IMG/VR virus record: IMGVR_UViG_2974521666_000001
Strand: one strand, 5' to 3'
From: a virus
DNA: 64,000 bases
Shown piece after piece: positions 29,091 through 53,788 of the stretch. Every line of letters begins with the position of its first letter. Position 1 is the stretch's first letter. Below the pieces are notes generated by a model that worked only from the letters and a program-made list of their open reading frames with translations, was not told the origin of the DNA and did no database searches. Both the position numbers and the translations under genes were made by a program.

Positions 29091-29442
29091 TGACATTGCG
29101 TACACGGTGGTACTGGAGACACTAGTGGCCTCGCTGGCCCTCAAGCTCGGCGCGGACCCAAACGAGCTGGTACCGAACGTGTTACGCGAAGTTGCAGAAG
29201 CTGAGGGCATGGAAAGCCTAGAGACAGATAGGCTTATCGAACAACGCTGGACTGGCCGGCAAATGCCGCTAGCGGCCCAAAGTGCCCTGTTGCCCCAGGT
29301 GAACGCTGCGGCTACCTGGGCAAACCGTGGGAAACGGGGCCTCAGAAGCCCTGAGACGGCCGAAAAGCCTGACCTTAGGGCCAGACTAGCCGACTACAAA
29401 CAACGCCTGTCTGAGGCTGTCTCTGAGGGCGGCCCTATTTAA
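29077..29442 (+). CDS. Hypothetical protein (121 aa)
   Basis: GTG start overlaps the preceding gene; last gene before the large non-coding region. Confidence 0.4.
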   Translation: MSNPDDIAYTVVLETLVASLALKLGADPNELVPNVLREVAEAEGMESLETDRLIEQRWTGRQMPLAAQSALLPQVNAAATWANRGKRGLRSPETAEKPDLRARLADYKQRLSEAVSEGGPI

Positions 29443-29474
29443 AGCCCGTAAGCTGTAGTGTCCCTAGGGCACTG

Positions 29475-29535
29475 AGAGGCCCGTAGCTGCATAGCAGTAC
29501 GCTTGTACTGAGTGTCCGCCAGCTGCGGGCCTCTC
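29475..29535 (+). terminator. Long branched stem-loop (16-bp stem) at the end of the structural-lysis operon; putative terminator
   Basis: GAGAGGCCCGTAGCTG ... CAGCTGCGGGCCTCTC form an inverted repeat enclosing an inner CAGTAC/GTACTG hairpin. No clear U-tract follows. Confidence 0.4.
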
Positions 29536-29601
29536 GCATTTCCTATGGTCAGGTTGCCGGCTGATGCCCTGACCAGCTCATATGTCCAGTGATACAGATA
29601 T

Positions 29602-29623
29602 CGGTTTGGTCACGGTTTGGTCA
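29602..29623 (+). repeat. Perfect tandem duplication of an 11-bp unit (CGGTTTGGTCA x2)
   Basis: Seen directly in the non-coding region. Confidence 0.6.
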
Positions 29624-30208
29624 AGATTCGGAAAAGATTCCCTGGTGGCGTTGCCGAAAAGTAGCAAGTCAGGCCCGTTTCTGGTACTCTTTTGCCTGGG
29701 GCGGCCCATGCCACCCCACCACAACCCAGCCGCCCGCACGGGCGGACGCGAGCACACCCTTGGCGAAACGACTACCAGCTCTTCGCCCGACGCGTGAAAA
29801 AGGCTCCACCCCACTGGGACATAAACGTAAGACCTAGAGGGTCTACACCATTCGTGTAAACGGTGGAGCTGTGACATGGAGCAGCGCTGTGGATCCTGGG
29901 ACGGGCTGTTTAGTGCAACATTAGGCCGAAGGCGCTCTTGCCCAAGAGTACCTAGGGAATTCAACCAGCGATAACGGATCGTCGTGAGACAGTACCGGAG
30001 TCACCCTACGGGGTGCCCGCTGAAGCCGGACACGGTGTGACCTGACTGAACCTAGGGAGTGTAGGGAATTGAGCCCGATGAGGCTGAAATACGTTGTGAC
30101 GGTACACCTTCATGCAGCAAGAGCAGGCACCACCCAAGCCCCTCACGCGGGGCCGGAGCACCTGCCGCTACAGGTCAATGTGTTACAACGTTTTCCATCC
30201 ATCCTCGG

Positions 30209-30280
30209 CACAGCGAGTTCAAACTCGTTGTGCCATTAGGGCACTCAAGCAAACTCAATCAGTTTGAGTGCTCCAATGGC
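30209..30280 (+). promoter_or_regulatory. Two adjacent large imperfect palindromes just upstream of the first gene of the small-gene array (operator- or terminator-like)
   Basis: CACAGCGAGTT-CAA-AACTCGTTGTG (30209-30232), then GCCATTAGGGCACTCAAGCAAACT / AGTTTGAGTGCTCCAATGGC (30232-30280). Confidence 0.4.
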
Positions 30281-30323
30281 ACAATGAGTCCGGTTGAGCC
30301 ACAAAAGTTTACGGACAAAGAGG

Positions 30324-30617
30324 ATGGTAACCATGTTCGTCGAAACCCGCACCACTGCTGACGAAGTCAAGGCCGAGATGCTCCACGAAGTGGAGTGCTT
30401 GGCCAATCACTTGCTGAGTCAACCGCAAACGGTTGCATGGCATCCCAGTTACACCACCATCTCGAGCCTCCAAGAGGACCGGGCACGGTTTTCTGGGGCC
30501 GTGCGGCTGGTGCGACGGGTGTACGGAGACAAGTTCCCTGATGAGCTGGAGGCCAAAATCGTTCTTGCCATAGAGGCTAACGAACAGGCCATCCAGATCA
30601 AGCGCAGGAAGCGTTGA
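30324..30617 (+). CDS. Hypothetical protein (first gene of the small-gene array)
   Basis: AAAGAGGATGG box. ATG at 30324 or 30333 are in-frame starts. Confidence 0.45.
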   Translation: MVTMFVETRTTADEVKAEMLHEVECLANHLLSQPQTVAWHPSYTTISSLQEDRARFSGAVRLVRRVYGDKFPDELEAKIVLAIEANEQAIQIKRRKR

Positions 30618-30797
30618 TGCCCACGCCTAGGCCCAACGTTAGTTGGGTAGACGGACACGGCCACCGGCTGTTCGGCACCTTCGTGTGTTGGGACCCTAAG
30701 GATTCCGACTACGCGATTTGCCGGACGGCCGTTGGCCGGTTCAAGGCACGCATCCATAAGTCAAACCTCACCTATGAATGCGGTTAGGAGAAAGACG

Positions 30798-31040
30798 ATG
30801 GCACTCACCAATGTTCAAAAGGCTGATTTGGCACATGCCTTGCTGATCCAGGCAGGAAACCTTGTCGAGTACAGGGACCACTACGTGGATCAGTTGCACT
30901 CCAGCCTTCAGAATGCGACTACGGAAGACATTGCGACACAGCTCACTATCTGGCTGCAGCGTCTTCCTGGTGAATGGTGGGACTCAAGGCTTCCGAAGCC
31001 AGACGCTCTTCGAGACGGGCGAAAAGGTTACGGAAGCTAA
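30798..31040 (+). CDS. Hypothetical protein (80 aa)
   Basis: ATG after TAGGAGAAAGACG. Confidence 0.45.
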   Translation: MALTNVQKADLAHALLIQAGNLVEYRDHYVDQLHSSLQNATTEDIATQLTIWLQRLPGEWWDSRLPKPDALRDGRKGYGS

Positions 31041-31049
31041 GAGTCCAAC

Positions 31050-31091
31050 GCGCTACTGGCAGACACCCTGGTTCGAGTCCAGGGAGCGCAC
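31050..31091 (+). ncRNA. tRNA-like minihelix element 1
   Basis: Stem GCGCT/AGCGC, linker ACTGGCAGACA, T-arm CCCTGG-TTCGAGT-CCAGGG, then AC; starts 10 nt after the upstream stop. Confidence 0.55.
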
Positions 31092-31132
31092 AAAGCTGTA
31101 GCGCCGCTACGGCACAACAGAGAGGATGGGAC

Positions 31133-31390
31133 ATGAGCAACTTCGAGTACCAGGCCGTTGATCCTGCTGCCGCTGCAGTCGGGTTTGGCAAGCCGTTGCT
31201 GAACAACCCCAGGTGGGCCGAGGAAAACTGTGCTGACACACTGCTTTCCGTAAAGGCCGGTGGGGCCGGTGATCTGTACCTCACAGATCAGCAGGGCAAC
31301 GTGTTCGTCAAGTTCGATTCGGGGCATCCGGATCAGGTCCACGCCGCAGCACGGTGGTTGTCGGTGTTCATACAGTCCATCGAGAGCTAA
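31133..31390 (+). CDS. Hypothetical protein (85 aa)
   Basis: AGAGAGGATGGGAC box then ATG; follows element 1 and a short hairpin. Confidence 0.45.
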   Translation: MSNFEYQAVDPAAAAVGFGKPLLNNPRWAEENCADTLLSVKAGGAGDLYLTDQQGNVFVKFDSGHPDQVHAAARWLSVFIQSIES

Positions 31391-31399
31391 AGGCTCTCA

Positions 31400-31441
31400 G
31401 CCGCACTGGCAGACATCAAGGTTCGAGTCCTTGAGCGGCAC
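31400..31441 (+). ncRNA. tRNA-like minihelix element 2
   Basis: GCCGC-ACTGGCAGACAT-CAAGG-TTCGAGT-CCTTG-A-GCGGC-AC; identical to element 6. Confidence 0.6.
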
Positions 31442-31484
31442 AAAGCCATACAGTCCGTATGGCCCTTACGAGAGGATGGAAGCA

Positions 31485-31739
31485 ATGATCTGCGCACACA
31501 TTCACTACGGTCCTTTCAATTACGGACACAAGAAGTTTGACAACGTCAAGCAGGCCATGGACTACTTCGAGAACGAGGTTGCCGGTGTCGACTTTGGCAC
31601 TGGCACTTCCGAGCAGAACATGGATTTGTATGAGTCCGAATGGGATTGCCCGTGCAACGACCACATGAACTTCCATGATTACCCCATGGAGCGATTCGTG
31701 GTTGCGGCCGACGGCACTCCTGTGGCGGTGGCCATCTGA
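31485..31739 (+). CDS. Hypothetical protein (84 aa; C..C and H-rich)
   Basis: GAGAGGATGGAAGCAATG start context. Confidence 0.45.
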   Translation: MICAHIHYGPFNYGHKKFDNVKQAMDYFENEVAGVDFGTGTSEQNMDLYESEWDCPCNDHMNFHDYPMERFVVAADGTPVAVAI

Positions 31740-31930
31740 TGGCCGCTGAAGAGTCTGATCTTCAAACTGTGTACGACTGCTACTCAACAATGTTGGAGGC
31801 AGCAGGGGTGCCGGGTGACGAAATCGCCTGGTACCAAGAGTACATGGCCAACATCTTGGATAACGTTGGCACACAAGAAGATCTGCAAGAGGTAGTCAAA
31901 GCCATGGTGTACCTGAAAGGGAGACAGTAA
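31739..31930 (+). CDS. Hypothetical protein (63 aa)
   Basis: ATG overlaps the upstream TGA stop. Confidence 0.4.
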   Translation: MAAEESDLQTVYDCYSTMLEAAGVPGDEIAWYQEYMANILDNVGTQEDLQEVVKAMVYLKGRQ

Positions 31931-31938
31931 GCTAAATC

Positions 31939-31980
31939 GGGGCAACGGTTTTCGGGGAGGTTCGATTCCTCCCGTCCCAC
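31939..31980 (+). ncRNA. tRNA-like minihelix element 3
   Basis: GGGGC-AACGGTTTTCG-GGGAGG-TTCGATT-CCTCCC-GTCCC-AC. Confidence 0.5.
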
Positions 31981-32017
31981 TAGGCAACCAAAGTGGTTGC
32001 TAGAGAGGATGGGAACA

Positions 32018-32311
32018 ATGGCTACAATCAAGGCGCGCAACTTTCTCTGCCGCAACTGCCACGTGGACGTTAACGTCACCGAGTGTGGCTGCAACGCAGG
32101 CTCTTACTCAATCACCTCTTGGGATTGTGCTCAGTGCGGCATTGAGGTTGTGTCCAGCGGTGGTCGAGACGTTGACTGCTCCAAGTGCGGGGCCTGCTAC
32201 AACGGCTCCGGCCAGCGTCTTCGCAGCGATTGGCGTAGCAATCCATCGGTTTACGACGACAACGTCGGTGACCTGGAGGGCTACGAACTGCAGCACGCCA
32301 ACGACTGGTGA
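32018..32311 (+). CDS. Cys-rich zinc-ribbon-like protein (97 aa)
   Basis: Multiple CxxC pairs (CRNC, CGC, CAQC, CSKCGAC); TAGAGAGGATGGGAACAATG start context. Confidence 0.45.
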   Translation: MATIKARNFLCRNCHVDVNVTECGCNAGSYSITSWDCAQCGIEVVSSGGRDVDCSKCGACYNGSGQRLRSDWRSNPSVYDDNVGDLEGYELQHANDW

Positions 32312-32324
32312 CGTAATCACCGGA

Positions 32325-32366
32325 GGGCCAACGGTTTTCGTAGGGGTTCGATTCCCCTAGGCCCGC
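32325..32366 (+). ncRNA. tRNA-like minihelix element 4
   Basis: GGGCC-AACGGTTTTCG-TAGGGG-TTCGATT-CCCCTA-GGCCC-GC, then hairpin 32368-32390. Confidence 0.5.
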
Positions 32367-32406
32367 TAGGTCGTTCGTACGGGACGACCTCACAGAAAGG
32401 ATGGAA

Positions 32407-32745
32407 ATGGCAGCACGAAAGATGAAGGTTGTCAAGTCGATTCAGGTCGAGAAGCCGACGAGGTTTGCCCGCGTTCGGAAGGGCAAGGGGCAGAACAGCA
32501 CTCGAGAGCTTCAGGCCCGGTCACTGAAGGCGGCGGCAAACCACGGTCAGCCGTGGAGCGACGACGAGGTGGCCCGAATCGTGGCCGGAATACAGAGAGA
32601 CGAAACGTCTTTCGAACTTGCGCTGGCTGTAGGACGAAGCTACTACAGCACCATGAGCGCCAGGTCACATGTGGCGTTTGCTATGCGCCACGCCAACGCC
32701 TTGGAGTTGGCCGTCAAGCAGGCAGCGCGGGCCAAGCACCACTGA
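32407..32745 (+). CDS. Helix-turn-helix DNA-binding protein, putative (sigma-70 region 4 / LuxR-like)
   Basis: PWSDDEVARIVAGIQRDETSFELALAVGRS; AGAAAGGATGGAAATG start context. Confidence 0.4.
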   Translation: MAARKMKVVKSIQVEKPTRFARVRKGKGQNSTRELQARSLKAAANHGQPWSDDEVARIVAGIQRDETSFELALAVGRSYYSTMSARSHVAFAMRHANALELAVKQAARAKHH

Positions 32746-32760
32746 CAACCCAATCGTGTA

Positions 32761-32803
32761 GCCCTGGTAAGGCGTACTGAGGTTCGATTCCTCAGCAGGG
32801 CAC
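32761..32803 (+). ncRNA. tRNA-like minihelix element 5
   Basis: GCCCTG-GTAAGGCGTA-CTGAGG-TTCGATT-CCTCAG-CAGGGC-AC, then hairpin 32809-32824. Confidence 0.55.
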
Positions 32804-32844
32804 TTTGCCCGGCAAACCAGCCGGCAATTAGAGAGGATGGGAAA

Positions 32845-33012
32845 ATGGTGAATGTGTACAAGATTGACGGTTTGCAGCTGCAGGCGATCAGGGGTTATCT
32901 CAAGAACCCTGATACTCATACCCTTCGGATCATGGTTGATGAGGAGGGTGTGAAGGTCAAGTTCAATCAAGGGCCTTGGTCCCCACCACTCGGGGAACTT
33001 GAAAGGAACTGA
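32845..33012 (+). CDS. Hypothetical small protein (55 aa)
   Basis: TAGAGAGGATGGGAAAATG start context; not in the ORF track because it is under 60 aa. Confidence 0.4.
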   Translation: MVNVYKIDGLQLQAIRGYLKNPDTHTLRIMVDEEGVKVKFNQGPWSPPLGELERN

Positions 33013-33013
33013 A

Positions 33014-33238
33014 ATGGCCGATATCCTATTGGCACATGGTGAAAGCACTTCAGGCACCAAACACACCCTGGAGATCGATCCAATCTACGGAAGTCATGAC
33101 TCAATTGATTGGCTGAAGTGGACTATCATGGGTCCCAACGGGAAACGGCACGCAAGTGTCAAGCTGACCTTGGCTGATGCCGAGGGCATTGCAAACCACC
33201 TGTTGGACATCGTAGAAGAGGCCCGTCGTAACGCATGA
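33014..33238 (+). CDS. Hypothetical protein (74 aa)
   Basis: ATG 1 nt after the upstream stop, after AAAGGAA. Confidence 0.4.
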   Translation: MADILLAHGESTSGTKHTLEIDPIYGSHDSIDWLKWTIMGPNGKRHASVKLTLADAEGIANHLLDIVEEARRNA

Positions 33239-33246
33239 CAGGGCGA

Positions 33247-33288
33247 GCCGCACTGGCAGACATCAAGGTTCGAGTCCTTGAGCGGCAC
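33247..33288 (+). ncRNA. tRNA-like minihelix element 6 (exact 42-nt copy of element 2)
   Basis: GCCGCACTGGCAGACATCAAGGTTCGAGTCCTTGAGCGGCAC, then hairpin 33294-33312. Confidence 0.6.
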
Positions 33289-33327
33289 TAGGACAGTGGC
33301 ACGGGGCCACTGCCTTAACGAAAGAGG

Positions 33328-34263
33328 ATGGAAATGACCACCATTGAGAACAGTGTGAATGCAGTTGAGCTGATCGATCTGTCGGCAGCTTGCGAGAAGG
33401 CTGGAATCGGTGGGACAGTTCGCAATACGGAAGTTGGCACCGGTACGCTGTACGTGGTGGCCAAGCTTCCTGACGGGAACTGGGCTTTGGACTACGAAAC
33501 TGATGTGATCGACATTGCTGCTTTTCAGCAGGAGGGTTGGCTCGTTGTGTCCACGGCCACAGACGGCGAGGAGACAGAGCAGGATACCAAACCTGCTACG
33601 TACCAAGACTTCTTCGAAGGTTTGCCCACCTGGTCATACTTCTGGGACGGCCGAAACATTGACTGCCAGTACATCTTTACTGGCTGGAAGCAAAACAAGT
33701 ACGGCGACAACGTTCCTGCGTATGTCCACCACCGGTACATGACAACCAGCTTGATGTCCATCTTGGACCTGGATCACGAATGCCAGTGGGAGGCATTCAC
33801 AGTCAACGGTACGCCCAAGGAGGCCAGTCGCGATTTGCGGCAGGCAATCCGGACGATGTACTCGGCCTTGAAAGAGGCAGAGTCGTACAAGCAACTGCAT
33901 AAGGAAGAAGGTGAGCGGCTGGAGGCAGTCAAGCGTGATTTCCGAAAGCTGAACGAACACATCAATTCCTACGCTGAAGAAACCCACATGTGCGGCGACT
34001 ATGAGCGCCGTATCTACGGCTGGAACGAGACCTTCGAGGTCATGGAGCTCGAGGGCCGTGTTCGCGATTACAATGTGCCCGTACGGGTCCCTGGAGTGTT
34101 CGGGGACACTGAGGTCTGGGTTTCGGGTATCAAGGCCCGTACTCCAGAAGAGGCACGGGAACAGGTGCAGCGCATGACCGCTCAGGAAGTGCTGAACAAC
34201 CTGTATCAATCCGGTTACAGCATGCCGGAGTGGACCGTCGGCGATAGTACTCCGAGGGCCTAG
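33328..34263 (+). CDS. Hypothetical protein (311 aa)
   Basis: AAAGAGGATGGAAATG start context. Confidence 0.45.
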   Translation: MEMTTIENSVNAVELIDLSAACEKAGIGGTVRNTEVGTGTLYVVAKLPDGNWALDYETDVIDIAAFQQEGWLVVSTATDGEETEQDTKPATYQDFFEGLPTWSYFWDGRNIDCQYIFTGWKQNKYGDNVPAYVHHRYMTTSLMSILDLDHECQWEAFTVNGTPKEASRDLRQAIRTMYSALKEAESYKQLHKEEGERLEAVKRDFRKLNEHINSYAEETHMCGDYERRIYGWNETFEVMELEGRVRDYNVPVRVPGVFGDTEVWVSGIKARTPEEAREQVQRMTAQEVLNNLYQSGYSMPEWTVGDSTPRA

Positions 34264-34278
34264 CCCCAAAGCAGGGCA

Positions 34279-34320
34279 GGGTGACTGGCAGACATCAGGG
34301 TTCGAGTCCCTGACACCCAC
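34279..34320 (+). ncRNA. tRNA-like minihelix element 7
   Basis: GGGTG-ACTGGCAGACAT-CAGGG-TTCGAGT-CCCTG-A-CACCC-AC, then hairpin 34324-34342. Confidence 0.6.
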
Positions 34321-34363
34321 AAAGCCGTAGGCGTTCTACGGCCTAGCAAGAGAGGATGGAACA

Positions 34364-34597
34364 ATGCCGCTACCAAGGGGGTTCAAGTTCATACGCTGCC
34401 CCGAATGCAAACGCAAAGGTGTGTCATGTAGATTCAGCGGGCGAACCGGGGAGGACTACTGGCAATGCCGCTACTGCAGCTGGTACTGCTATGCAGGAGG
34501 GGAGGACCGGATTGACGTTGAGCGTCGACGAGCACTTGCTGCAGCCAATCCCGGTGAGCCTATATGGGTTACAGCACTGGACGATGACACACTGTAA
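34364..34597 (+). CDS. Zinc-ribbon-like small protein (77 aa)
   Basis: CPEC ... CRYCSWYC; AGAGAGGATGGAACAATG start context. Confidence 0.45.
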   Translation: MPLPRGFKFIRCPECKRKGVSCRFSGRTGEDYWQCRYCSWYCYAGGEDRIDVERRRALAAANPGEPIWVTALDDDTL

Positions 34598-34603
34598 CGG
34601 CAA

Positions 34604-34645
34604 GCCTGACTGGAAGGCACCGACGTTCAAGCCGTCGGCTGGCGC
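34604..34645 (+). ncRNA. Degenerate member of the minihelix family (T-arm-like hairpin CCGACG-TTCAAGC-CGTCGG preceded by a GACTGGAAGGCA linker)
   Basis: The linker resembles GACTGGCAGACA of the other elements, but no acceptor-like pairing is found. Confidence 0.25.
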
Positions 34646-34685
34646 GGGGTGAGCCACTATGGCTTACTACAAGAAAGGGGATGGA

Positions 34686-35051
34686 ATGAAGCACGTTATC
34701 GCTATTTCAGGCAATGACCTTGCGTACCTTCGCAAGGCAGCCTTGTCGGCGTTTCAAGAGGCCGGTCAGATTGGCGTACTACGCATTTACATTACCGATG
34801 ACGGTAAGCTCATGTTTGGAGCACGGGGTCACGTAACCAAAGTGATTGGTAGGCCCATTAAGGCTTCCGATGAAGAGCGCGAAATGGGTTTGAGTGCCCC
34901 AAGCGGAAATCCGTACGCCAACATTGACGACGATGAAGATGCGCAAGATGCTGCTGAGGCAGTAGGCCTCTCGCTTGAAGAACGTGTTGCACACCTGGAG
35001 GAACTGGTCAAGGGCGAGAACATCGTTGTGATCAACCTCTCAAAGTCCTAG
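34686..35051 (+). CDS. Hypothetical protein (121 aa)
   Basis: AAAGGGGATGGAATG start context. Confidence 0.4.
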   Translation: MKHVIAISGNDLAYLRKAALSAFQEAGQIGVLRIYITDDGKLMFGARGHVTKVIGRPIKASDEEREMGLSAPSGNPYANIDDDEDAQDAAEAVGLSLEERVAHLEELVKGENIVVINLSKS

Positions 35052-35063
35052 CAGCGCTAGGCA

Positions 35064-35108
35064 GCCGGCCACGGTTGGTTAATAGTGGTTCGAGTCCACT
35101 ACCGGCAC
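35064..35108 (+). ncRNA. tRNA-like minihelix element 8
   Basis: GCCGG-CCACGGTTGGTTAA-TAGTGG-TTCGAGT-CCACTA-CCGGC-AC, then hairpin 35111-35129. Confidence 0.55.
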
Positions 35109-35153
35109 GAAGGCAACAACCCGTTGCCTTACATCAAGATTCGAGGATGGAAC

Positions 35154-35555
35154 ATGAAACGTAATGTGAAAGAAGTCGTGGTTGCATTTCTTGTGACCAT
35201 GGGCCTGTTCTTCGCTCTCGCAGCAATCCACAACGCCGCCGTAACCAATGTGGCCAAGGCAGATCCAGGCGTTGGCTGCGAGACAATTCGTTGGGGTTTC
35301 CTAGGAAGCCAAAGGCGCACCATCTGCGACGGGCCGCGCAGGCCTGACGGCAGCTGGGAGCGTTTGCGTCTGATCTGGACGCCAGCGGGTTACGTGCCAC
35401 GCTACACCTACTGCGGTAGCTACTCATGCTCTTCCAGCGGTGGCTACTACCGGGAGGAGACGCTTCAGGGCAAGGAAACGTATGTGGTGTTTGACCACAA
35501 CGTGCTGCCCGATGAGCCGGGTTGGCTGCCACCGGGAACGGACATTATCCGATGA
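35154..35555 (+). CDS. Secreted or exported protein with an N-terminal signal/transmembrane segment and several Cys (133 aa)
   Basis: MKRNVKEVVVAFLVTMGLFFALAAIHNAAVTNVAKADPGVG; TCGAGGATGGAACATG start context. Confidence 0.45.
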   Translation: MKRNVKEVVVAFLVTMGLFFALAAIHNAAVTNVAKADPGVGCETIRWGFLGSQRRTICDGPRRPDGSWERLRLIWTPAGYVPRYTYCGSYSCSSSGGYYREETLQGKETYVVFDHNVLPDEPGWLPPGTDIIR

Positions 35556-35734
35556 GAGACTGCAGCGAGCATGGAACCAATAGCAACGTATGCGATTTCG
35601 CCGGCTGCTTTGGCCCGGCAAAACCGTACCGTTGCATCTGCGGTGACTTCAAAACGGATTCCCCGAGAGTGCTAGACGTGCATATCCTCTGGGCGAATAA
35701 GTTCAGAGCCAATGTGGAGCACGGCTGGCCGTAG
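35552..35734 (+). CDS. Cys-rich small protein (60 aa)
   Basis: ATG overlaps the upstream stop (ATGA). Confidence 0.35.
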   Translation: MRDCSEHGTNSNVCDFAGCFGPAKPYRCICGDFKTDSPRVLDVHILWANKFRANVEHGWP

Positions 35735-35742
35735 CCACAAGA

Positions 35743-35784
35743 GCCGCAATGGCATACACCCAGGTTCGAGTCCTGGGGCGGCAC
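35743..35784 (+). ncRNA. tRNA-like minihelix element 9
   Basis: GCCGC-AATGGCATACA-CCCAGG-TTCGAGT-CCTGGG-GCGGC-AC. Confidence 0.55.
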
Positions 35785-35828
35785 GAGTCCTGAGCAATCG
35801 GCTTGGGGCACTATGAAAGAGGATGGAA

Positions 35829-36050
35829 ATGCGAGTAGCAGATGCAGTGAGGAAGACCTCTGGCATTCATCGGCTCAAGGTGGGCGAGATGTTCACCGAC
35901 GCAGATGGTGATTGGGAGGTGACCAGAGAGCCTGTGGTTGATGGCGATTGGGTCGTCGTGTACCTGAGGCCCGTGCCCTTTCACGAGGGCCAGCGCGCTA
36001 GGGCCTACCGATATCCCTTGTCAACTCAGGTGAAGATGCTGCGTAAGTAA
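35829..36050 (+). CDS. Hypothetical protein (73 aa)
   Basis: AAAGAGGATGGAAATG start context. Confidence 0.45.
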   Translation: MRVADAVRKTSGIHRLKVGEMFTDADGDWEVTREPVVDGDWVVVYLRPVPFHEGQRARAYRYPLSTQVKMLRK

Positions 36051-36094
36051 AGCACTCTGCTGTGGCTACGGGGATTGTGCCAAGTAGAGAGATA

Positions 36095-36161
36095 CCCTGC
36101 AACGGTTTTGGCGTGTTCGAGGGTTACACACCAACAGAGGTTCGATTCCTCTGGCAGGGAC
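36095..36161 (+). ncRNA. tRNA-like minihelix element 10 (long linker)
   Basis: CCCTGC, then a 34-nt linker beginning AACGGTTTTGG, then CAGAGG-TTCGATT-CCTCTG-GCAGGG-AC. Confidence 0.45.
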
Positions 36162-36202
36162 GACGGTGGGCCACCAGGTCTACCGAACGAAAGGGGATGG
36201 AA

Positions 36203-36619
36203 ATGCGTACGTTTACCTTTGGGACCCAGTATGTCCCAGAGACAAAGGCAGTCCTGAAGTGGGGCAAGTACGCCGACGGCAGCACTGCACTACGTGTTGT
36301 GTCGGAGTACGGTGAGCCTCTGGCTACGGCCACAGTCTGCCTGCGCAACTACAACCTTCAGCCGGGTAAAGGCAATGTCTTCATCTACGGGGACTACAGC
36401 GAACATGTCGGAGTGTTCGAGGCCCTGCGGAAGGCCGGGATTGTCGGTGACCCTGTGAACCGAATTCCCATGGGAGGCTTTGGCGCTTTCGCGTACGAGG
36501 CTCCCCTGCTGTGGAGCGAGCACGAGCCAACCTGTGAGGGTATGGCAGACGTGGACTACCACACCCAAGTTGATGCCATGCTCGAACGAGTGGCACAGCA
36601 AGACAACAAGTCCCAGTAG
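36203..36619 (+). CDS. Hypothetical protein (138 aa)
   Basis: AAAGGGGATGGAAATG start context. Confidence 0.45.
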   Translation: MRTFTFGTQYVPETKAVLKWGKYADGSTALRVVSEYGEPLATATVCLRNYNLQPGKGNVFIYGDYSEHVGVFEALRKAGIVGDPVNRIPMGGFGAFAYEAPLLWSEHEPTCEGMADVDYHTQVDAMLERVAQQDNKSQ

Positions 36620-36627
36620 ACTGGGCA

Positions 36628-36669
36628 GCCCGAAAGGCATACACGCTGGTTCGAGTCCAGCGCGGGCAC
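36628..36669 (+). ncRNA. tRNA-like minihelix element 11
   Basis: GCCCG-AAAGGCATACA-CGCTGG-TTCGAGT-CCAGCG-CGGGC-AC, then hairpin 36673-36685. Confidence 0.55.
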
Positions 36670-36709
36670 GAGCGCCATAGTGGCGTATCAAGAAAGGGGA
36701 TGGACTGAG

Positions 36710-36916
36710 TTGCATAGAGAAACGGAATTCGTGCTCGCCCGCGAGCTCAGCGATGGCAGCCTACCTCACATGCCACCGGCAGATGAGCTGCCACATCGTG
36801 GCCGAATCACAAGGATTCTCAACGACTCTGGGGTGTTGACAATCGAGTGTGAGGACGGTATGCTCAGCCGAGGGATGAACGCCCCGGTTGAACGGTACAA
36901 GAGGGAGGCTCAGTGA
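36710..36916 (+). CDS. Hypothetical protein (68 aa)
   Basis: AAAGGGGATGGACTGAGTTG start context (TTG start). Confidence 0.35.
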   Translation: MHRETEFVLARELSDGSLPHMPPADELPHRGRITRILNDSGVLTIECEDGMLSRGMNAPVERYKREAQ

Positions 36917-37050
36917 ACAAACTGCGGAAGTTGTTGCGAGCCTACAGAGTTTCGCAGCACAGACGCCGGCTGAATGACGAAGCCCATATCGCTTGGGCCA
37001 GATCACTACTGGCAGAACGTGAACGACCGGTAGACTAGTACAGCACAGGA

Positions 37051-37092
37051 GTCCGACTGGCAGACATCAGGGTTCGAGTCCCTGACGGACAC
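37051..37092 (+). ncRNA. tRNA-like minihelix element 12
   Basis: GTCCG-ACTGGCAGACAT-CAGGG-TTCGAGT-CCCTG-A-CGGAC-AC, then 7-bp hairpin 37095-37120. Confidence 0.6.
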
Positions 37093-37148
37093 GACTTGGA
37101 GCCACGAGGGAGACTCCAAGCACCACAACAGAAAGAGGATGGGAAACA

Positions 37149-38345
37149 ATGGGCGCAGAAACCATGGAGTGGTACAACAACTTCTGCCTGATCGGGCACA
37201 CCAATCAGCGTGGAAAGAGTTGGCACTATATGGAGTCCATGCAGGGAGAGGAGCCGAATCATTACCCCGAGGGCATCCCGTATGACGATGTTGTACGGCG
37301 GCTATTCAATTGGAAGCCAATGCTTACCCGTACGGCAAACATGATTCCATGTGAGTTGCTACGGGATGAGGCAGGACAGCCCTTGACCGACGACCAGGGA
37401 CGCCGTCGCTACGAACCTGAGCCGTCAGTATGGGTTCAGCGTGTGGACAGCAACGGCAACCCAGTGTTCCACGAGGGCCGTCCGGTCAACGTTCCCATGA
37501 AACTGGTAGAGGTCCATGACAAACGGGGCCTGGTCCGTAGCGACAACTACCTGGAGCTGGGGCACCCCGGCAAGAACTACAAGATCCACGACTACGAGGA
37601 GTGGCTCTTGCAGTTGCTATCCAACGTGATTGGGGACACTCTCGACATTTGGTCAGCAATCCTGTTGCGCAATGGCGCTCAGGCCTGTGTCCAGGTGGCT
37701 CTTCCTGAGACGGCTCACGACAGCACAACTGGAATGGACTTTGTTCCATACGTCCACTGCTATACGAGCCTAGACAGTAGTCTGGCTACCACTTTCGCTG
37801 GCCAAACGCTGTTGATCGTGTGCGACAACACGATGACTGCGGCCAACGCAAGAGCAGCCAAGGCAGGGCGGCAGTACAAGGCACGTCACACGTCCGGAAG
37901 CCTTGAGACCCACAAGATCTCTGAGGTCCGGCAAGCCCTGTCGATTATTCACCAAACCGCAGACAGCTCTATGGAATTCTTCCACAAGCTGGCTGCCATT
38001 GAAGTGCCCAACAAGAAGTGGATTGAGGTGCTAGACATCATCATTCCACCGGGTGATCCCAACAAGGACAGCACCAGGACCGTTCGTGGTCGTGAGTCCA
38101 AGAGGGAACACCTGAACAGCGTGTACCAAAGTGACCCTATGGCGAATACCTGGAAAGGTACTGGCCTTGGGGTGGTACAGGCAATCAACACCTACGCAAC
38201 CCACTACGCGCCACTGCGCGGCCGCTCCCGTGTTCAGGGCAACGCTGCCAAGCTGGTGGACGGTGAGTTTGCCAAGGTGGACAGCAAGAGCGTGCAGGCC
38301 CTTGCTCAAGTGATGGATATGCCAGAGTTGTTGACTACCAACTAG
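37149..38345 (+). CDS. Conserved phage/plasmid protein (398 aa), possibly DUF932-like
   Basis: GAAAGAGGATGGGAAACAATG start context. The DUF932 assignment is from recall only. Confidence 0.4.
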   Translation: MGAETMEWYNNFCLIGHTNQRGKSWHYMESMQGEEPNHYPEGIPYDDVVRRLFNWKPMLTRTANMIPCELLRDEAGQPLTDDQGRRRYEPEPSVWVQRVDSNGNPVFHEGRPVNVPMKLVEVHDKRGLVRSDNYLELGHPGKNYKIHDYEEWLLQLLSNVIGDTLDIWSAILLRNGAQACVQVALPETAHDSTTGMDFVPYVHCYTSLDSSLATTFAGQTLLIVCDNTMTAANARAAKAGRQYKARHTSGSLETHKISEVRQALSIIHQTADSSMEFFHKLAAIEVPNKKWIEVLDIIIPPGDPNKDSTRTVRGRESKREHLNSVYQSDPMANTWKGTGLGVVQAINTYATHYAPLRGRSRVQGNAAKLVDGEFAKVDSKSVQALAQVMDMPELLTTN

Positions 38346-38353
38346 TCTGGTGC

Positions 38354-38395
38354 GGGTGACTGGCAGCCACCGGGGTTCAAGGCCCCGGCACCCAC
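38354..38395 (+). ncRNA. tRNA-like minihelix element 13
   Basis: GGGTG-ACTGGCAGCCA-CCGGGG-TTCAAGG-CCCCGG-CACCC-AC. Confidence 0.5.
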
Positions 38396-38470
38396 TTACT
38401 CGTGATGGATAACAGCCTGGGTTACTAGCCTGAGCATCTCAGTGTTAGTCCTACGGCTATCTCATTTTTC

Positions 38471-38499
38471 GTGCCAAGCAGGCTCTCGTGTGTTATGAT
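38471..38499 (+). promoter_or_regulatory. Candidate sigma-A-type promoter with an extended -10 (TGT-TATGAT) and a weak -35 (GTGCCA, 17-bp spacer)
   Basis: Only a motif match, located in the 170-bp gap upstream of gene 38566. Confidence 0.3.
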
Positions 38500-38565
38500 C
38501 CGGGGCAGGGTTAGGGCCTAGGCCCGACGCCCTAGACTCCCTACGGAACACACAGAGGATGGCCC

Positions 38566-39144
38566 ATGGCATTACCAGCCGAGGAACCAGTTGTTAAGGC
38601 AATGAAGATTGCCGTTGCAGCGAAACGCAATGACTGGCATGGCAATATCGAGGCCCCGTTGGTGGACGGGATTCGCCACACAACAGTGATAGCAACCAGA
38701 AACGATGAGAGGCTGGAGGTTTCATACAAAGGCAACGCATATGAAGCTGGAGAGTACCGGATCTTTGACCGTCGTCAAAACCTACACTGTGCCAGCGTAG
38801 CTTTAGAGAAGGTTGAGGGGTGGCCGGACATCCTGGACTTGTTCAAGGCGTTCCCCAACAAGAACAAACCCAATCTAGTAGAAACATATCGCCGGCTGCC
38901 ATTCGATGAACATACGGACACACCGGAATTCATCATGGAGCAGATGATCGGCCGTCAGCTGTTCTGGTTCTCGCACGAGTACAACAGGCTGGACTTTGAC
39001 GTAGTCCTGCAACCTCGCAAGAGCAACTCGAAGAACTTTCGCATAGCGCCAGTAGGCCATCGGAAGATCTTTCACTTCATGGGAGCCAAGGCAGGCTTCC
39101 GTTCTGTCATTCTCGACACAATCATCAAGGTAGGCAACGCATGA
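38566..39144 (+). CDS. Hypothetical protein (192 aa)
   Basis: CAGAGGATGGCCCATG start context after a GC hairpin (38512-38535). Confidence 0.45.
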   Translation: MALPAEEPVVKAMKIAVAAKRNDWHGNIEAPLVDGIRHTTVIATRNDERLEVSYKGNAYEAGEYRIFDRRQNLHCASVALEKVEGWPDILDLFKAFPNKNKPNLVETYRRLPFDEHTDTPEFIMEQMIGRQLFWFSHEYNRLDFDVVLQPRKSNSKNFRIAPVGHRKIFHFMGAKAGFRSVILDTIIKVGNA

Positions 39145-39785
39145 CCGCAGTGTATCCCAACGACGTAGACGCTGTACTGGATCAGTGCATCCGGGAAGAC
39201 AAGGCCCTTAAAGAGGCCCGGGAGTACGCCTCTGACATGGAGCTTCCGGACATTGCTGTATCCGTGCAGCAAGCGAAGTTCCTTGAGCTGTTAGTTCGTA
39301 CAGCCAAGGCCAAGAACGTCCTAGAGATCGGCACACTGGCAGGCTACAGCACCATTGCCCTAGCCCGCGCCGTCGGGGAGGACGGGTACGTGACCACCGT
39401 GGAGTATGAGCCACGGCACGCCAAGGTTGCACATGTGAACCTGTATCACGCTGGAATCCACCACAGAACCAGTGTGTTGGTAGGGGATGCACACGACATC
39501 TTGCCCAAGCTGGAGCCAAACTCGTTTGACTTCATCTTCATTGACGCCGACAAGGAGTCCAACGAGGCTTACTTCAAGTACGCGTACGGCCTTGGCACAG
39601 AAGACGTTACCGTGGTGGTGGACAACGTGATTCGCGACGGCAGGGTGCTGGACCCTAGCAGGCCGGACAAGCGGGAATTCATAGAGTTCCTCGGCCGTCA
39701 GCCTGCATTTGACGTATCCGTTATCCAGACAACGGGTTCCAAGGGCTGGGACGGGTTCGTGCTGGCCAAGCGAAAGGTGATGTGA
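39141..39785 (+). CDS. SAM-dependent O-methyltransferase (class I, catechol/caffeoyl-CoA O-methyltransferase-like)
   Basis: Motif I VLEIGTLAGYSTIALA and FDFIFIDADKE acidic motif. Confidence 0.65.
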   Translation: MTAVYPNDVDAVLDQCIREDKALKEAREYASDMELPDIAVSVQQAKFLELLVRTAKAKNVLEIGTLAGYSTIALARAVGEDGYVTTVEYEPRHAKVAHVNLYHAGIHHRTSVLVGDAHDILPKLEPNSFDFIFIDADKESNEAYFKYAYGLGTEDVTVVVDNVIRDGRVLDPSRPDKREFIEFLGRQPAFDVSVIQTTGSKGWDGFVLAKRKVM

Positions 39786-39976
39786 TGGCTCGTCTGTTAA
39801 CCATCCACATTCAGACTCAACGTAGGGACCGTACTGTTGTCGCCAAGATGACACGGTGCCAGTGCCTCAAGGCTGCTTGTATCATGGTCTGGGCTGCGCT
39901 CACTGGAGATTCGGAGAACCACGAGTGAACACAGTGGAGTTCAGGCTCGCAGCCGGCGCGAAAGGCGTAGTGGTAT

Positions 39977-40306
39977 ATGATTATTGAGTCAACACGTGAA
40001 TTCATGATTTCGTGCGATTCGTTTAGGATCGAATGCAACCAATGTGGTGATTGGTCAAATGGCTTGTCCCGCAACGATCTTGATGAGTTCAAAGCCAAGC
40101 ATGAGCACAAGAACGAACGCTTCTATGTCCAATGCAATTCAGAGGGCGAAGATTTGGCCGTAGTGAAAATGACCTACGATCAACAGGCCGTAATCGAAAA
40201 GTTTGAACGAGATTCGGCGCGAAAACGTCAGTGGCGCAAAGAGAATGAGGGCAAATTTGCCACTCATGAGGAAATGATGGAGGCGTACAAAAAGGAATTT
40301 GGTTGA
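39977..40306 (+). CDS. Hypothetical protein encoded in a distinctly AT-rich segment (109 aa)
   Basis: Local GC visibly far below the genome background; Lys/Glu-rich with CxxC (ECNQCGDW). Confidence 0.45.
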   Translation: MIIESTREFMISCDSFRIECNQCGDWSNGLSRNDLDEFKAKHEHKNERFYVQCNSEGEDLAVVKMTYDQQAVIEKFERDSARKRQWRKENEGKFATHEEMMEAYKKEFG

Positions 40307-40391
40307 TGAATCTTAGCAGGGCCACCCGTGTGGACTGCACCAACATCATCACCGCTCTTACTGCGGCTCTAGAAGATAGGTAGGTTTTAGG

Positions 40392-42152
40392 GTGCCACAA
40401 TCAGACCTCGGAGTTGCCCTTCACAGTAGGCCGTTCCAGCTAGCAGGCGCACGGTTTGCCATGCGACATAAGAACGTACTGATTGCCGATGAACCTGGAC
40501 TCGGTAAGACCATCCAGGCCATTGCAGCTGTAACAGGTAACAAGACTACGGGTTCCGTGCTGATTGTGGCACCCAAAACCGCTGCGTACGTAACATGGCC
40601 AGCTGAGCTACGGCGCTGGTTACACGATCTTGCACCAGATGACCCTGTGCGTATCATCACCGGCAATGCAGACAAGCGTACTCGCATAGCGTTGCTACGA
40701 GATACGGTCAAGTGGGAGACCTCCAGCCAGCGCGCGGGCCAACGCCAGTGGGTTATCGTATCTCCTAACTACTTACGCTTCAAGATTGAGTGCGATGACA
40801 AGGGGCGCTACGTCCATGACGACAAGGGCAACAAGATCATCACCCCGGTACGTGAGGCCCTGAAGCCTCTGCTGTACATACAGTGGGCTGCCGTGATTGT
40901 TGACGAGGCCCACGAAACCCTAGCTGGTGCTACGGGAAACTTGAAGAAGCAAAGTGCTCAGAGCAGAGGCCTACGTCTGCTTGACATTCGTGAAGACGGA
41001 ATGCGACTTGCGTTGTCTGGCACGCCCTTTCGTGGTAAGCACGAGAACATCTGGGGCATCCTCAACTGGATTGACCCTGTGGAGTACAACGCCAATGGTG
41101 GCCCTAACTCTTACTGGAAGTGGGTCTACAGGTACTTCCAGGTCTACCACGACGACGTATTCGATACGGACGTTATCGGAAAGCTGCGCAGTGAACGCGA
41201 CTTGCGAGCTGCATTAAAGCCGTACATGATTCGGCGCACCAAGAAGAAAGTGCTACCGGAGCTACCGGATAAGCAATACGGTGGCACACCGCTGTACCCA
41301 AAGAAGAAGCCTCCCAAAGAGCTACTGGACGCCGTAGCCCGCGCTGCGGAGGAGCAGAAGGCCAATCCCAAGGCAAGGCTAGGTTACCGGAAGGCACAAG
41401 CCAAGCTGGCTGGGTGGTACGACAAGAACAACCCCGTTGCAGTATGGCTTCCGATGGACGGCAAGCAACGTACAGCCTACAACCAGATGAAGACCCAGGC
41501 CATGGCCAACATCGAAGGTGGTACGCTGCTAGCCAATTCGTTGTTGGCTGAGATGACAAGGCTTAAGCAGTTTGCGAATAGCTATGGGAGACTAGACGAA
41601 CAGGGCAATTACCACCCTGATATGCCCTCGAACAAATTCGACTGGATACTCCAGTTCCTTAATGAGAGAGGCATTTACGGCCCAGAACCAAGCGGCAACA
41701 GGATCATCATTGCATCCCAGTTCACTAAGCACATCAACCTGTTTGCGCAAGTCTTGTTAGAACAGTACAAGATACCGAATTACAAGATCACCGGTGCCAC
41801 CAGTGCAGATGAGAGACTACGGATTCAAGAGGAATTCCAGTCTGGGCAGACGCCGGCTGGTAAGCCGAGTCCGGAAGTGTTGCTACTGAATACGAAAGCT
41901 GGTGGCGTGGGCATCACCCTGGATGCTGCCGACGACATGATCGTGGTGGACAGTACCCACAACGTGGATGATCAAGTGCAACTAGAAGATCGGATTCACC
42001 GCATCTCCAGGATACATAGCGTTACTATCTGGAACCTTGTTACCAAGGGTACTATCGACGAGAAGATCTTACGAGCCACCCGTAAGACGGGCCGTAGTCT
42101 TAAGCGTATCTTGGACACACCAGAGGCAGCTAAGGACTTATTGGAGAGCTGA
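40392..42152 (+). CDS. SNF2/RAD54-family helicase (DEAD/DEAH box plus helicase C-terminal domain)
   Basis: LIADEPGLGKTIQAIA (motif I), VIVDEAHETL (motif II, DEAH), and C-terminal helicase motifs. Confidence 0.7.
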   Translation: MPQSDLGVALHSRPFQLAGARFAMRHKNVLIADEPGLGKTIQAIAAVTGNKTTGSVLIVAPKTAAYVTWPAELRRWLHDLAPDDPVRIITGNADKRTRIALLRDTVKWETSSQRAGQRQWVIVSPNYLRFKIECDDKGRYVHDDKGNKIITPVREALKPLLYIQWAAVIVDEAHETLAGATGNLKKQSAQSRGLRLLDIREDGMRLALSGTPFRGKHENIWGILNWIDPVEYNANGGPNSYWKWVYRYFQVYHDDVFDTDVIGKLRSERDLRAALKPYMIRRTKKKVLPELPDKQYGGTPLYPKKKPPKELLDAVARAAEEQKANPKARLGYRKAQAKLAGWYDKNNPVAVWLPMDGKQRTAYNQMKTQAMANIEGGTLLANSLLAEMTRLKQFANSYGRLDEQGNYHPDMPSNKFDWILQFLNERGIYGPEPSGNRIIIASQFTKHINLFAQVLLEQYKIPNYKITGATSADERLRIQEEFQSGQTPAGKPSPEVLLLNTKAGGVGITLDAADDMIVVDSTHNVDDQVQLEDRIHRISRIHSVTIWNLVTKGTIDEKILRATRKTGRSLKRILDTPEAAKDLLES

Positions 42153-42154
42153 GC

Positions 42155-42457: not shown

Positions 42458-42538
42458 CAGGCCGCTGGCGGTGGTGTATCGTTGTCGTCGTCAGGCCACC
42501 GGGGCATCCCGGAAGAACGAAAAGGGAAGAGACACAAC

Positions 42539-53746: not shown

Positions 53747-53788
53747 GGGTGAGCGGCACACACCAAGGTTCGAGTCCTTGGCACCCAC
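53747..53788 (+). ncRNA. tRNA-like minihelix element 14 (in the replication module)
   Basis: GGGTG-AGCGGCACACA-CCAAGG-TTCGAGT-CCTTGG-CACCC-AC; 8 nt after the upstream stop. Confidence 0.5.

Follow-up and report, generated by a model that had tools for sequence, protein, structure and literature searches.

The 64,000-nucleotide (nt) stretch of viral DNA analyzed here (IMG/VR record IMGVR_UViG_2974521666_000001), referred to below as the window, corresponds at 100% identity to positions 7548 to 71547 of the Mycobacterium phage Send513 record. Send513 belongs to Cluster R, genus Papyrusvirus, and its complete genome measures 71.5 kb. Cluster R phages have been reported to be lytic and circularly permuted; the Send513 annotation places every gene but one on the plus strand and lists no repressor and no integrase. 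Just to the right of the lysis cassette lie small genes in an array, spaced about 90 to 100 nt apart, and the gaps between them carry a recurrent cassette composed of a tRNA-like minihelix, a hairpin, and a purine-rich box with a Shine-Dalgarno (SD)-like core directly ahead of the start codon. The cassette had been proposed in a sequence-only reading of the window; here, its anatomy, conservation, and possible function were analyzed. Positions are those of the window unless stated otherwise.

Anatomy and conservation of the cassette

Twelve exact GGTTCGAnTCC T loops were found at 31070-37071, within minihelices that span 31050-37094. All 12 were followed by a hairpin and then by a box, so the order minihelix, hairpin, box, start codon given by the sequence-only reading was borne out. 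A 13th, degenerate minihelix lies at 34620. The statement that nearly every minihelix is continued in this way holds with three exceptions, namely, the element at 38349-38397 (no adjacent hairpin or box), the T-loop-like GGTTCGACTCC at 43812 (inside a GOLLD RNA), and the minihelix at 53747-53790 (followed by a canonical AGGAG). Each minihelix has two stems, one acceptor-like (5 bp) and the other the T stem (6 bp), which together give 11 contiguous base pairs; the linker between them measures 11 nt and contains a near-invariant GG, and the loop measures 7 nt. Its ends have A.A at position 1-72 and a discriminator that is mostly C, without CCA.

When 36 units from seven genomes or contigs were aligned, pairing reached 100% in the T stem and about 97% in the acceptor stem, and 159 doubly changed cells were counted. 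The covariation score was 0.80, compared with 0.16 after shuffling (none of 500 shuffles reached the observed value) and 0.10 to 0.19 in slid controls. This covariation backs the view that the minihelix mimics the acceptor/T-arm of a tRNA, and the coupling of the box to tRNA-like structures that had been noted earlier is real. The minihelices fall into sequence subfamilies. Candidate identities as true tRNA genes or members of a known RNA family were dropped: ARAGORN called no tRNA gene in the window, the Rfam tRNA model had no match to the minihelices at an E value of ≤10, and in the Rfam search of 29400-45000 GOLLD alone passed the threshold and none of the cassette units did, with only weak fragments of mascRNA and of the tmRNA T-arm besides.

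The hairpin behind each of the 12 Send513 minihelices has a stem of 7 to 10 bp (z = -1.5 to -4.9), longer than the 5 to 7 bp first read, and starts 0 to 3 nt past the discriminator. All nine hairpin coordinates listed in the sequence-only reading fall on predicted hairpins. In a larger set of 58 units from eight genomes or contigs, the hairpin was found in 55 units and began 0 to 3 nt past the discriminator in 52 of these 55, whereas its distance to the box floated between 3 and 19 nt. The Send513 hairpins end 0 to 10 nt before the first A of the 14-nt box, or 3 to 13 nt before RRGGATGG, rather than the 5 to 12 nt estimated earlier. Because the distance to the discriminator is fixed and that to the box is variable, the hairpin is placed relative to the 3' end of the minihelix and not relative to the box. 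The hairpins have no common sequence and are conserved in structure only, with compensatory changes. In phage Cuke (L181), 5 of the 12 unit hairpins carry the loop UUGAUCCCCAA (in one case UUGACUCCCAA) on covarying stems, a motif unseen in Send513; examples lie at L103 positions 3880-3926, 4325-4371, 5756-5802, and 9014-9060.

Three other roles for the units were considered and dropped. No U tracts follow the hairpins, as intrinsic terminators would require. A consensus scan of 29400-31200 gave no promoter-like sites and terminator-like sites at chance level only. For T-box-like pairing of UGGN with the discriminator plus CCA, the discriminator proved to be uncorrelated with the base after GGATGG.

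The box word GAGGATGG occurs 16 times in the window, compared with 2.3 expected copies. In an unbiased 8-mer enrichment, AGAGGATG and GAGGATGG were among the top strand-specific words, beside T-loop words; the 8-mer GCGCGGGC was also overrepresented, in dispersed copies. On the plus strand of the complete Send513 genome, RRGGATGG has 17 sites, and at all 17 a start codon (ATG at 15, TTG at 2) lies 1 to 6 nt downstream and opens an open reading frame (ORF) of at least 55 amino acids (aa). A comparable criterion (0 to 7 nt, ORF of at least 35 aa) is fulfilled by 18.6% of random positions, and none of the five minus-strand copies lies at a gene start. The enrichment of the motif at gene starts, suggested earlier as a check, was thus confirmed. 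All 17 boxes lie in the nonstructural arm (record position of at least 37867), in gaps of at least 87 nt.

The box consensus is ARAGAGGATGGRAA, with flanks that add A-R-A upstream and R-A-A downstream, and the 14-nt consensus A-R-A-G-A-G-G-A-T-G-G-R-A-A of the sequence-only reading is correct by the site tally. In Send513, GAGG precedes the start codon by 5 to 10 nt, a wider range than the 8 to 10 nt reported at first. The boxes named earlier before the genes at 38566, 44152, and 57719 stand; those at 30320 and 34677 had been missed, the latter behind the degenerate 13th minihelix. The weak forms before 50648 and 60902 are also present (GAGGATGA at 50632 and AGAGAGGGATCG at 60886).

The ATG contained in the box is in frame with the gene at 7 of the 17 Send513 sites and in 22 of the 58 cross-genome units, that is, at the chance rate of about one third, and it was rejected as the start codon. 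The immediate stop noted before, ATGGGAAAATGGTGA at 32837, was read correctly. The location of 17 of 17 boxes at gene starts, the variable spacer of 1 to 6 nt, the chance-rate internal ATG, and the predicted pairing with 16S rRNA described below together support the earlier view that the box is a start-associated, SD-containing motif and probably not itself the start codon.

In practice, the box is a reliable predictor of start codons and exposes several likely misannotated starts in Send513. PHROG profiles back the box-predicted ORFs; that at 34364-34597, for example, aligns with phrog_23077 from end to end (1-77 of 77). The GenBank starts that look wrong concern window positions 34364, 34686, 35154, 35829, 36203, and 53811. 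For gp54, the annotated gene is in a different frame from the box-predicted ORF. The annotated starts of gp56 and gp79 fall inside a minihelix, that of gp59 lies upstream of a minihelix, and those of gp58 and gp43 are the ATG within the box. The later annotations of phages Rope and Papyrus already carry the box-predicted starts for gp54 and gp55.

Relatives with the cassette were found by pattern scans of IMG/VR followed by BLAST. The cassette is present in the phages Cuke, Fowlmouth, and Indlulamithi and in uncultured contigs (L107/L189, L135, L147, L053, and L168; G+C content of 39 to 56%). These relatives share a common gene order with Send513 and almost no alignable DNA. Cuke has 16 boxes at gene starts, mostly AAAGGATGGAATCATG, and Indlulamithi has 11. 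GGATGG is unchanged in all three phages and in the IMG/VR contigs, and GGAGG never substitutes for it in any box copy of the four genera. A pattern scan of 185,579 species genomes gave no match to the architecture in bacterial genomes or prophages. In the literature searched, no description of the repeats in Send513, Papyrus, Cuke, Fowlmouth, or Indlulamithi was found, though the 2014 review 'Molecular Genetics of Mycobacteriophages' may mention them.

Within Cluster R (alignment of Send513, Weiss13, Papyrus, and Rope), the box had 0 variable columns of 132, compared with 4.3% in minihelices, 6.1% in hairpins, 8.8% in coding sequence, and 11.8% in other intergenic sequence. Single-A insertions or deletions occur in the spacer between box and start codon. 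In the Rope unit before gp59, the extra arm and the hairpin are rewritten by compensatory substitutions with the box intact, and in Weiss13 a G-C pair in the T stem of unit 7 has become A-T by compensatory change (34298/34310). Given these compensatory changes beside an invariant box, selection retains structure in the hairpin and sequence in the box. An additional small gene is inserted in Papyrus and Rope precisely between the stop codon of gp48 and the minihelix of unit 3 (L003/L004 1931-2149, aligned to window position 31930), and in view of this insertion the cassette borders may be gene-insertion junctions.

Predicted partners of the box and its likeness to start-associated sequences

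Where exactly mature 16S rRNA ends at its 3' side is well established, and a 75-nt sequence ending in GGATCACCTCCTTTCT was found exactly in many Mycolicibacterium and Mycobacterium rRNA operons. In duplexfold predictions against GAUCACCUCCUUUCU, the box formed 8 bp (AGAGAGGA or AGAAAGGA), then a bulged U, and then 2 bp between GG and CC. The comparison with the 16S 3' end that had been called for thus gave the predicted pairing, to the 3'-terminal 10 nt (CCUCCUUUCU-3'), only if the U bulges. The mean predicted energy with 16S rRNA was -11.3 kcal/mol for box genes, -8.9 kcal/mol for other genes, and -5.4 kcal/mol for random windows; the box itself reached -13.4 kcal/mol, compared with -18.2 kcal/mol for a canonical perfect SD site. 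The U, G, and G of the box are invariant. Other Send513 genes use GGAGG, GAAAGG, and similar sites, and box genes never use GGAGG.

The description of the box as an extended SD site therefore stands as far as pairing with the 16S tail is concerned and is insufficient alone, since the U bulges and GGAGG never replaces GGATGG. On the modeled pairing, the box would be an SD site plus something more, and the same two observations suggest that a reader besides 16S rRNA also recognizes it. The best candidate for a second partner, one that could read the positions unexplained by 16S rRNA, is a phage RNA displaying CCAUCCUC.

Such a complement is present in the genome. The anti-box, CCATCCTC, is the exact complement of the box and has three plus-strand copies in Send513 (30199, 43038, and 60767), all of them in the three largest noncoding gaps, together 3.7% of the window. 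The plus-strand anti-box count is likewise exactly three in both Cuke and Indlulamithi, and sites 1 and 2 are syntenic in Cuke, Fowlmouth, and Indlulamithi. CCATCCTC is the sole 8-mer common to the methyltransferase-to-exonuclease gaps of the four genera (four genomes). At site 2, the anti-box occupies the apical part of a long covarying stem. At site 1, the block TTCCATCCATCCTCGG and a covarying hairpin are also found in L168 and L189, and in three of four lineages the hairpin contains G.U pairs possible on the plus strand only. In the RNAalifold prediction for the surrounding element at 29951-30234, made from four sequences, 18 of the 63 pairs show compensatory changes and several plus-strand G.U pairs are invariant; this candidate noncoding RNA (ncRNA) had no Rfam match. 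The element is about 285 nt long and located in the large gap before the early genes; its blocks GCGATAACGGA, ACCGGAGTC, and TTCCATCCATCCTCGG keep a constant spacing across Send513, L168, Cuke, Fowlmouth, and Indlulamithi.

The possibility that anti-boxes are simply gene starts on the minus strand was dropped for both syntenic sites. At site 1, the ORF has just 7 to 12 codons and a variable length, and the G.U pairs are plus-strand only; at site 2, Cuke lacks a minus-strand start codon. An exact 15-mer scan of IMG/VR for site 1 gave 93 matches, mostly by chance, and among them boxes occurred only in contigs of the same phage family.

The predicted duplex energy with the anti-box was -15.5 kcal/mol for the box, compared with -7.5 kcal/mol for a canonical SD site. 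Since the box favors the anti-box and the canonical SD favors 16S rRNA, the U may act as a discriminating mark, by which a phage RNA could distinguish box genes from all the rest.

The sequence-only reading had likened the box to the start-associated sequences (SAS) of Cluster K mycobacteriophages, and feature by feature against the published definition the likeness is apt. Cluster K SAS (GGGATAGGAGCCC) occur in 11 to 19 copies per genome, in one orientation and in the nonstructural arm only (Pope et al. 2011, PMC3203893). They precede start codons, mostly ATG, by a few (3 to 7) bp, at genes that follow gaps of >50 bp, and contain an SD core together with conserved positions unable to pair with 16S rRNA (PMC3203893). 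The Send513 box shares the copy number (17), single orientation, genome arm, position before start codons, long gaps, and SD core with further conserved positions; the latter argument is the one that set Cluster K SAS apart from ordinary ribosome-binding sites (Pope et al., PMC3203893). However, ARGGATGG does not match GGGATAGGAGCCC at up to 2 mismatches, and the box occurs in Cluster R and its relatives, which are lytic, unlike the Cluster K SAS. About half of Cluster K SAS have an upstream inverted repeat; in these extended SAS (ESAS), a pair of imperfect 17-bp inverted repeats follows a conserved consensus, and the repeats were not regarded as RNA hairpins (PMC3203893). The Send513 hairpins covary without shared sequence and so differ from the sequence-conserved ESAS repeats, and a tRNA-like element and a complementary 'anti' motif are present here, with none reported for Cluster K (PMC3203893). 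Judging from these features, the box works like a Cluster K SAS outside that sequence family. SAS have been an unexplained mycobacteriophage feature since 2011, and the box is a second example of unrelated sequence that adds an RNA-structural context, four genera, and a conserved complementary partner, leading to testable hypotheses.

A proposed RNA-level cassette and competing explanations

The observed anatomy of the cassette, its gene-start specificity, the covariation of its structures, the invariance and SD complementarity of the box, and the conservation of the anti-box are the basis of the reading we prefer, to which we assign a probability of roughly 0.6: a three-module, RNA-level cassette on the rightward early/nonstructural transcript, whose box is also read by a second partner. 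Ribosome use, cleavage, stabilization, and pairing between box and anti-box are inferred. The box, A-R-A-R-R-GGAUGG-R-A-A, would serve about 17 genes, a private class, as their ribosome-binding site, and its ARGGA..GG part would pair with the 16S tail, with the U bulged, to position the 30S subunit 1 to 6 nt upstream of the true start. The minihelix, as a mimic of the acceptor/T-arm half of tRNA with its elbow, would most likely recruit host tRNA-processing enzymes, with RNase P acting at its 5' side and a 3' activity, RNase Z or a different one, acting behind the discriminator. Such cuts would split the polycistronic RNA into gene-sized messages. The hairpin, 0 to 3 nt past the predicted cut, would then stand at the 5' terminus of the new message as a stem-loop and protect it from 5'-end-dependent decay, and the geometry of 52 of 55 units would suit such a processed mRNA. 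A phage RNA with CCAUCCUC could mask all box sites together.

Each of these steps has a known counterpart. A canonical SD site shares with the box the purine-rich ARGGA..GG, the position 5 to 10 nt before the start, and the complementarity to CCUCCUUUCU-3'; unlike it, the box would form a duplex interrupted by an invariant U and has a fixed sequence confined to one gene class. Punctuation of transcripts by tRNAs or tRNA-like elements is known from mitochondrial polycistrons, from RNase P cleavage of bacterial operon mRNAs, and from MALAT1/mascRNA. Shared with these are tRNA-shaped elements between coding units as predicted RNase P and RNase Z substrates, and the minihelix retains the coaxial acceptor/T-arm helix, the T loop, and a GG that possibly forms an elbow. 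In contrast to these precedents, the minihelices are half size, lack the D arm, the anticodon arm, and CCA, and have A.A at 1-72; their cleavage is only predicted, and in this phage early operon each has behind it a fixed hairpin and then a private ribosome-binding site. Stem-loops at the 5' terminus, such as that of the Escherichia coli ompA leader, stabilize mRNA against 5'-end-dependent RNases. The hairpin would similarly lie within 0 to 3 nt of a new 5' end if cleavage follows the discriminator, but this end would arise by processing and not by transcription initiation. The C4 antisense RNA of phages P1 and P7 (immI), whose precursor is processed by RNase P, pairs through its loops with phage ribosome-binding regions. 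The candidate RNA here is likewise a structured phage RNA with a loop complementary to ribosome-binding sites, with pairing predicted. However, C4 controls one operon in temperate phages, whereas the 8-nt anti-box could, as predicted, act on about 17 sites across the genome of a lytic phage.

Several points weigh against this reading. Every functional step in it is read from sequence. Recognition of the minihelix by RNase P and RNase Z would be an extrapolation from minimal substrates, with ARAGORN and the Rfam tRNA model calling no tRNA. Boxes without a minihelix exist (30320, 38555, 44138, and 57705), as does a minihelix without a box (53747), and because the modules can occur separately, the three functions would not be obligatorily linked. 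The low-G+C contig L053 has no hairpin. In partition-function folding, the predicted unpaired probability of the box averaged about 0.5, compared with about 0.37 for the upstream flank, a weak signal. Pairing of box and anti-box is beyond covariation testing because both partners are invariant, and most Cuke boxes are AAGGATGG, which forms only 7 of 8 pairs with CCAUCCUC.

The joint reading as a private translation code goes further, and we regard it as possible but doubtful. About 17 early genes would carry the U-marked SD variant GAGGAUGG, and RNAs with CCAUCCUC, displayed by the ncRNA (about 285 nt) that precedes the early array and by the stem-loop downstream of the methyltransferase gene, would pair with all boxes and not with GGAGG, thereby switching the whole early class off (or protecting it) in one step. 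The minihelices would serve as cleavage sites in the early transcript, where host RNase P and RNase Z would make individually stabilized messages. If processing is true, a bacteriophage would be using tRNA punctuation for its mRNAs; pairing of the anti-box with the box, if it occurs, would amount to a genome-wide, phage-private control of translation initiation through a single-nucleotide mark inside the SD site. The box could also supply orthogonal expression parts for mycobacterial genetics.

Among the competing explanations, a mainly evolutionary role is unlikely to be the better account. The cassette would be a portable regulatory junction that shuffles small genes by repeat recombination, in the manner of PeSL, the promoter-stem-loop cassettes of T4-type phages. 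It would account for the finding that, in four genera, the same cassette flanks small genes that differ and are mostly unrelated, and for the extra gene of Papyrus and Rope exactly at a cassette border. This role is compatible with one in expression and does not replace it; moreover, recombination needs sequence identity only, yet the hairpins are kept as structures without common sequence.

We consider it rather improbable that the non-SD positions are instead the site of an RNA-acting phage or host protein, with no antisense RNA involved. Phage T4 offers models in RegA, a translational repressor, and RegB, an SD-directed endoribonuclease, and a motif that is invariant, asymmetric, confined to the mRNA strand at early-gene ribosome-binding sites, and conserved at positions unreadable by 16S rRNA would suit such a protein. 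However, no candidate appeared among the box-gene products scanned (DUF932, CDGP domain, a helix-turn-helix [HTH] protein, and unknowns), and the exact complement in RNA loops would be left unexplained.

The simplest account, in which the box is merely a good SD site made uniform by recent copying of one cassette, without an extra reader or regulation, appears improbable to a marked degree. Its ARGGA..GG content, pairing with the 16S tail, and SD-like distance from the start codon are as this account expects, and the minihelix subfamilies suggest duplication. Recent copying is difficult to reconcile with adjoining hairpins and spacers that have fully diverged while the box has not (0 of 132 Cluster R columns), or with a box identical in four genera that share no alignable DNA. 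Nor would a mere SD site be expected to avoid the canonical GGAGG used by other genes of the genome, to keep a bulged U that weakens 16S pairing (-13.4 compared with -18.2 kcal/mol), or to have an exact complement conserved elsewhere.

It is very unlikely that the motif is read on DNA by a binding protein of the stoperator or operator type that controls transcription of the early region in either orientation. The 8-mer does occur in both orientations in noncoding DNA (17 plus-strand and 3 minus-strand copies), and the Cluster A stoperators are likewise multicopy, short, asymmetric, intergenic motifs with an orientation bias (cited in PMC3203893). Stoperators are bound by the repressor as DNA and have no fixed relation to start codons or SD content (cited in PMC3203893), whereas the box lies 1 to 6 nt from start codons, has SD content, and shows a strong orientation bias in phages reported to be lytic. 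The reverse copies, in addition, lie in loops of plus-strand RNA structures with G.U pairs allowed only on that strand. The box-internal ATG as a real initiation codon, in leaderless or SD-less initiation, is almost surely wrong: mycobacteria do translate leaderless mRNAs and some GenBank annotations (gp43 and gp58) begin there, but it is in frame at chance only, its out-of-frame cases open ORFs of 2 to 98 codons without pattern, and the usual 4-nt spacer of Cuke puts it out of frame.

Feature coordinates and neighboring elements

Table 1. Cassette units, separate modules, and anti-box sites of the window (all on the plus strand)
Feature (gene)	Span	Minihelix	Hairpin	Box	RRGGATGG start	Start codon	Remarks
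Unit 1 (gp46)	31050-31135	31050-31093	31095-31113	AGAGAGGATGG 31119-31129	31122	ATG 31133	
Unit 2 (gp47)	31400-31487	31400-31443	31445-31463	31469-31479	31472	ATG 31485	
Unit 3 (gp49)	31939-32020	31939-31982	31983-32001	32002-32012	32005	ATG 32018	
Unit 4 (gp50, HTH protein)	32325-32409	32325-32368	32368-32390	AGAAAGGATGG 32394-32404	32397	ATG 32407	
Unit 5 (gp51)	32761-32847	32761-32804	32805-32827	32830-32840	32833	ATG 32845	
Unit 6 (gp53)	33247-33336	33247-33290	33290-33315	33321-33331	33324	ATG 33334	
Unit 7	34279-34366	34279-34322	34324-34342	34349-34359	34352	ATG 34364	77-aa zinc-ribbon-like ORF 34364-34597; Send513 gp54 annotated differently
Degenerate unit (gp55)	34620-34688	T-arm-like 34620-34638 (loop TTCAAGC)	34649-34667	AAAGGGGATGG 34674-34684	34677	ATG 34686	
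Unit 8 (gp56, CDGP domain)	35064-35156	35064-35110 (longer linker)	35110-35130	35140-35150	35143	ATG 35154	
Unit 9 (gp58)	35743-35831	35743-35786	35787-35809	35816-35826	35819	ATG 35829	
Unit 10 (gp59)	36095-36205	36095-36162 (with extra arm)	36164-36185	AAAGGGGATGG 36190-36200	36193	ATG 36203	
Unit 11 (gp60)	36628-36712	36628-36671	36670-36689	36693-36703	36696	TTG 36710	
Unit 12 (gp61, DUF932)	37051-37151	37051-37094	37093-37121	37132-37142	37135	ATG 37149	
Box (gp43)	30317-30335	none		AAAGAGGATGG	30320	ATG 30333	First array gene; annotated start 30324 is the box-internal ATG, in frame
Box (gp62)	38552-38568			ACAGAGGATGG	38555	ATG 38566	
Box (gp69, exonuclease)	44135-44154			CAAGAGGATGG	44138	ATG 44152	20 nt past the GOLLD RNA end
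Hairpin and box (gp89, primase)	57686-57721	none	CGCGACGGCGCG	AAAGAGGATGG	57705	TTG 57719	
Weak variant (gp75)	50632-50650			GAGGATGA		ATG 50648	
SD-rich relative (gp91)	60886-60904			AGAGAGGGATCG		ATG 60902	Not the box itself
Minihelix without box (gp79)	53747-53790	53747-53790		none		GTG near 53811	Then canonical AGGAG; overlaps annotated gp79 start
tRNA-like element	38349-38397		none adjacent	none adjacent			T loop GGTTCAAGGCC; directly after gp61 stop
Anti-box site 1	29951-30234		30207-30234 (terminal)				Candidate ncRNA, about 285 nt; TTCCATCCATCCTCGG 30193-30208; anti-box CCATCCTC 30199-30206
Anti-box site 2	43003-43110						Stem-loop with CCATCCTC 43038-43045; 50 nt past methyltransferase gp68 stop
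Third anti-box	60738-60806						CCATCCTC 60767-60774 in stem-closed loop; Send513 specific, no counterpart seen in other genera

The tRNA-like element behind gp61 is a weak mascRNA-menRNA match, and a strongly structured spacer of about 160 nt extends from it up to the gp62 box (38349-38565 overall, plus strand). Farther downstream, a full-length GOLLD RNA (43658-44118, plus strand; Rfam RF02032, 180 bits, E = 1e-49) takes up the greater part of the 1,163-nt gap between gp68 (methyltransferase) and gp69 (exonuclease), flanked by the anti-box at 43038 upstream and the box at 44138 downstream. In Cuke, Fowlmouth, and Indlulamithi, this gap measures only 224 to 269 nt, so GOLLD RNA is absent there. 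Before the exonuclease start, Cuke (L181 23215-23241) and Indlulamithi (L182 24545-24569) have GGGTCGAT...AGAAACAGGTGGT in place of the Send513 box. Upstream of the primase hairpin and box, a very stable plus-strand stem-loop with a 16-bp core stem (57533-57600; core 57544-57581) directly follows the gp88 stop and may be a terminator or a processing site.

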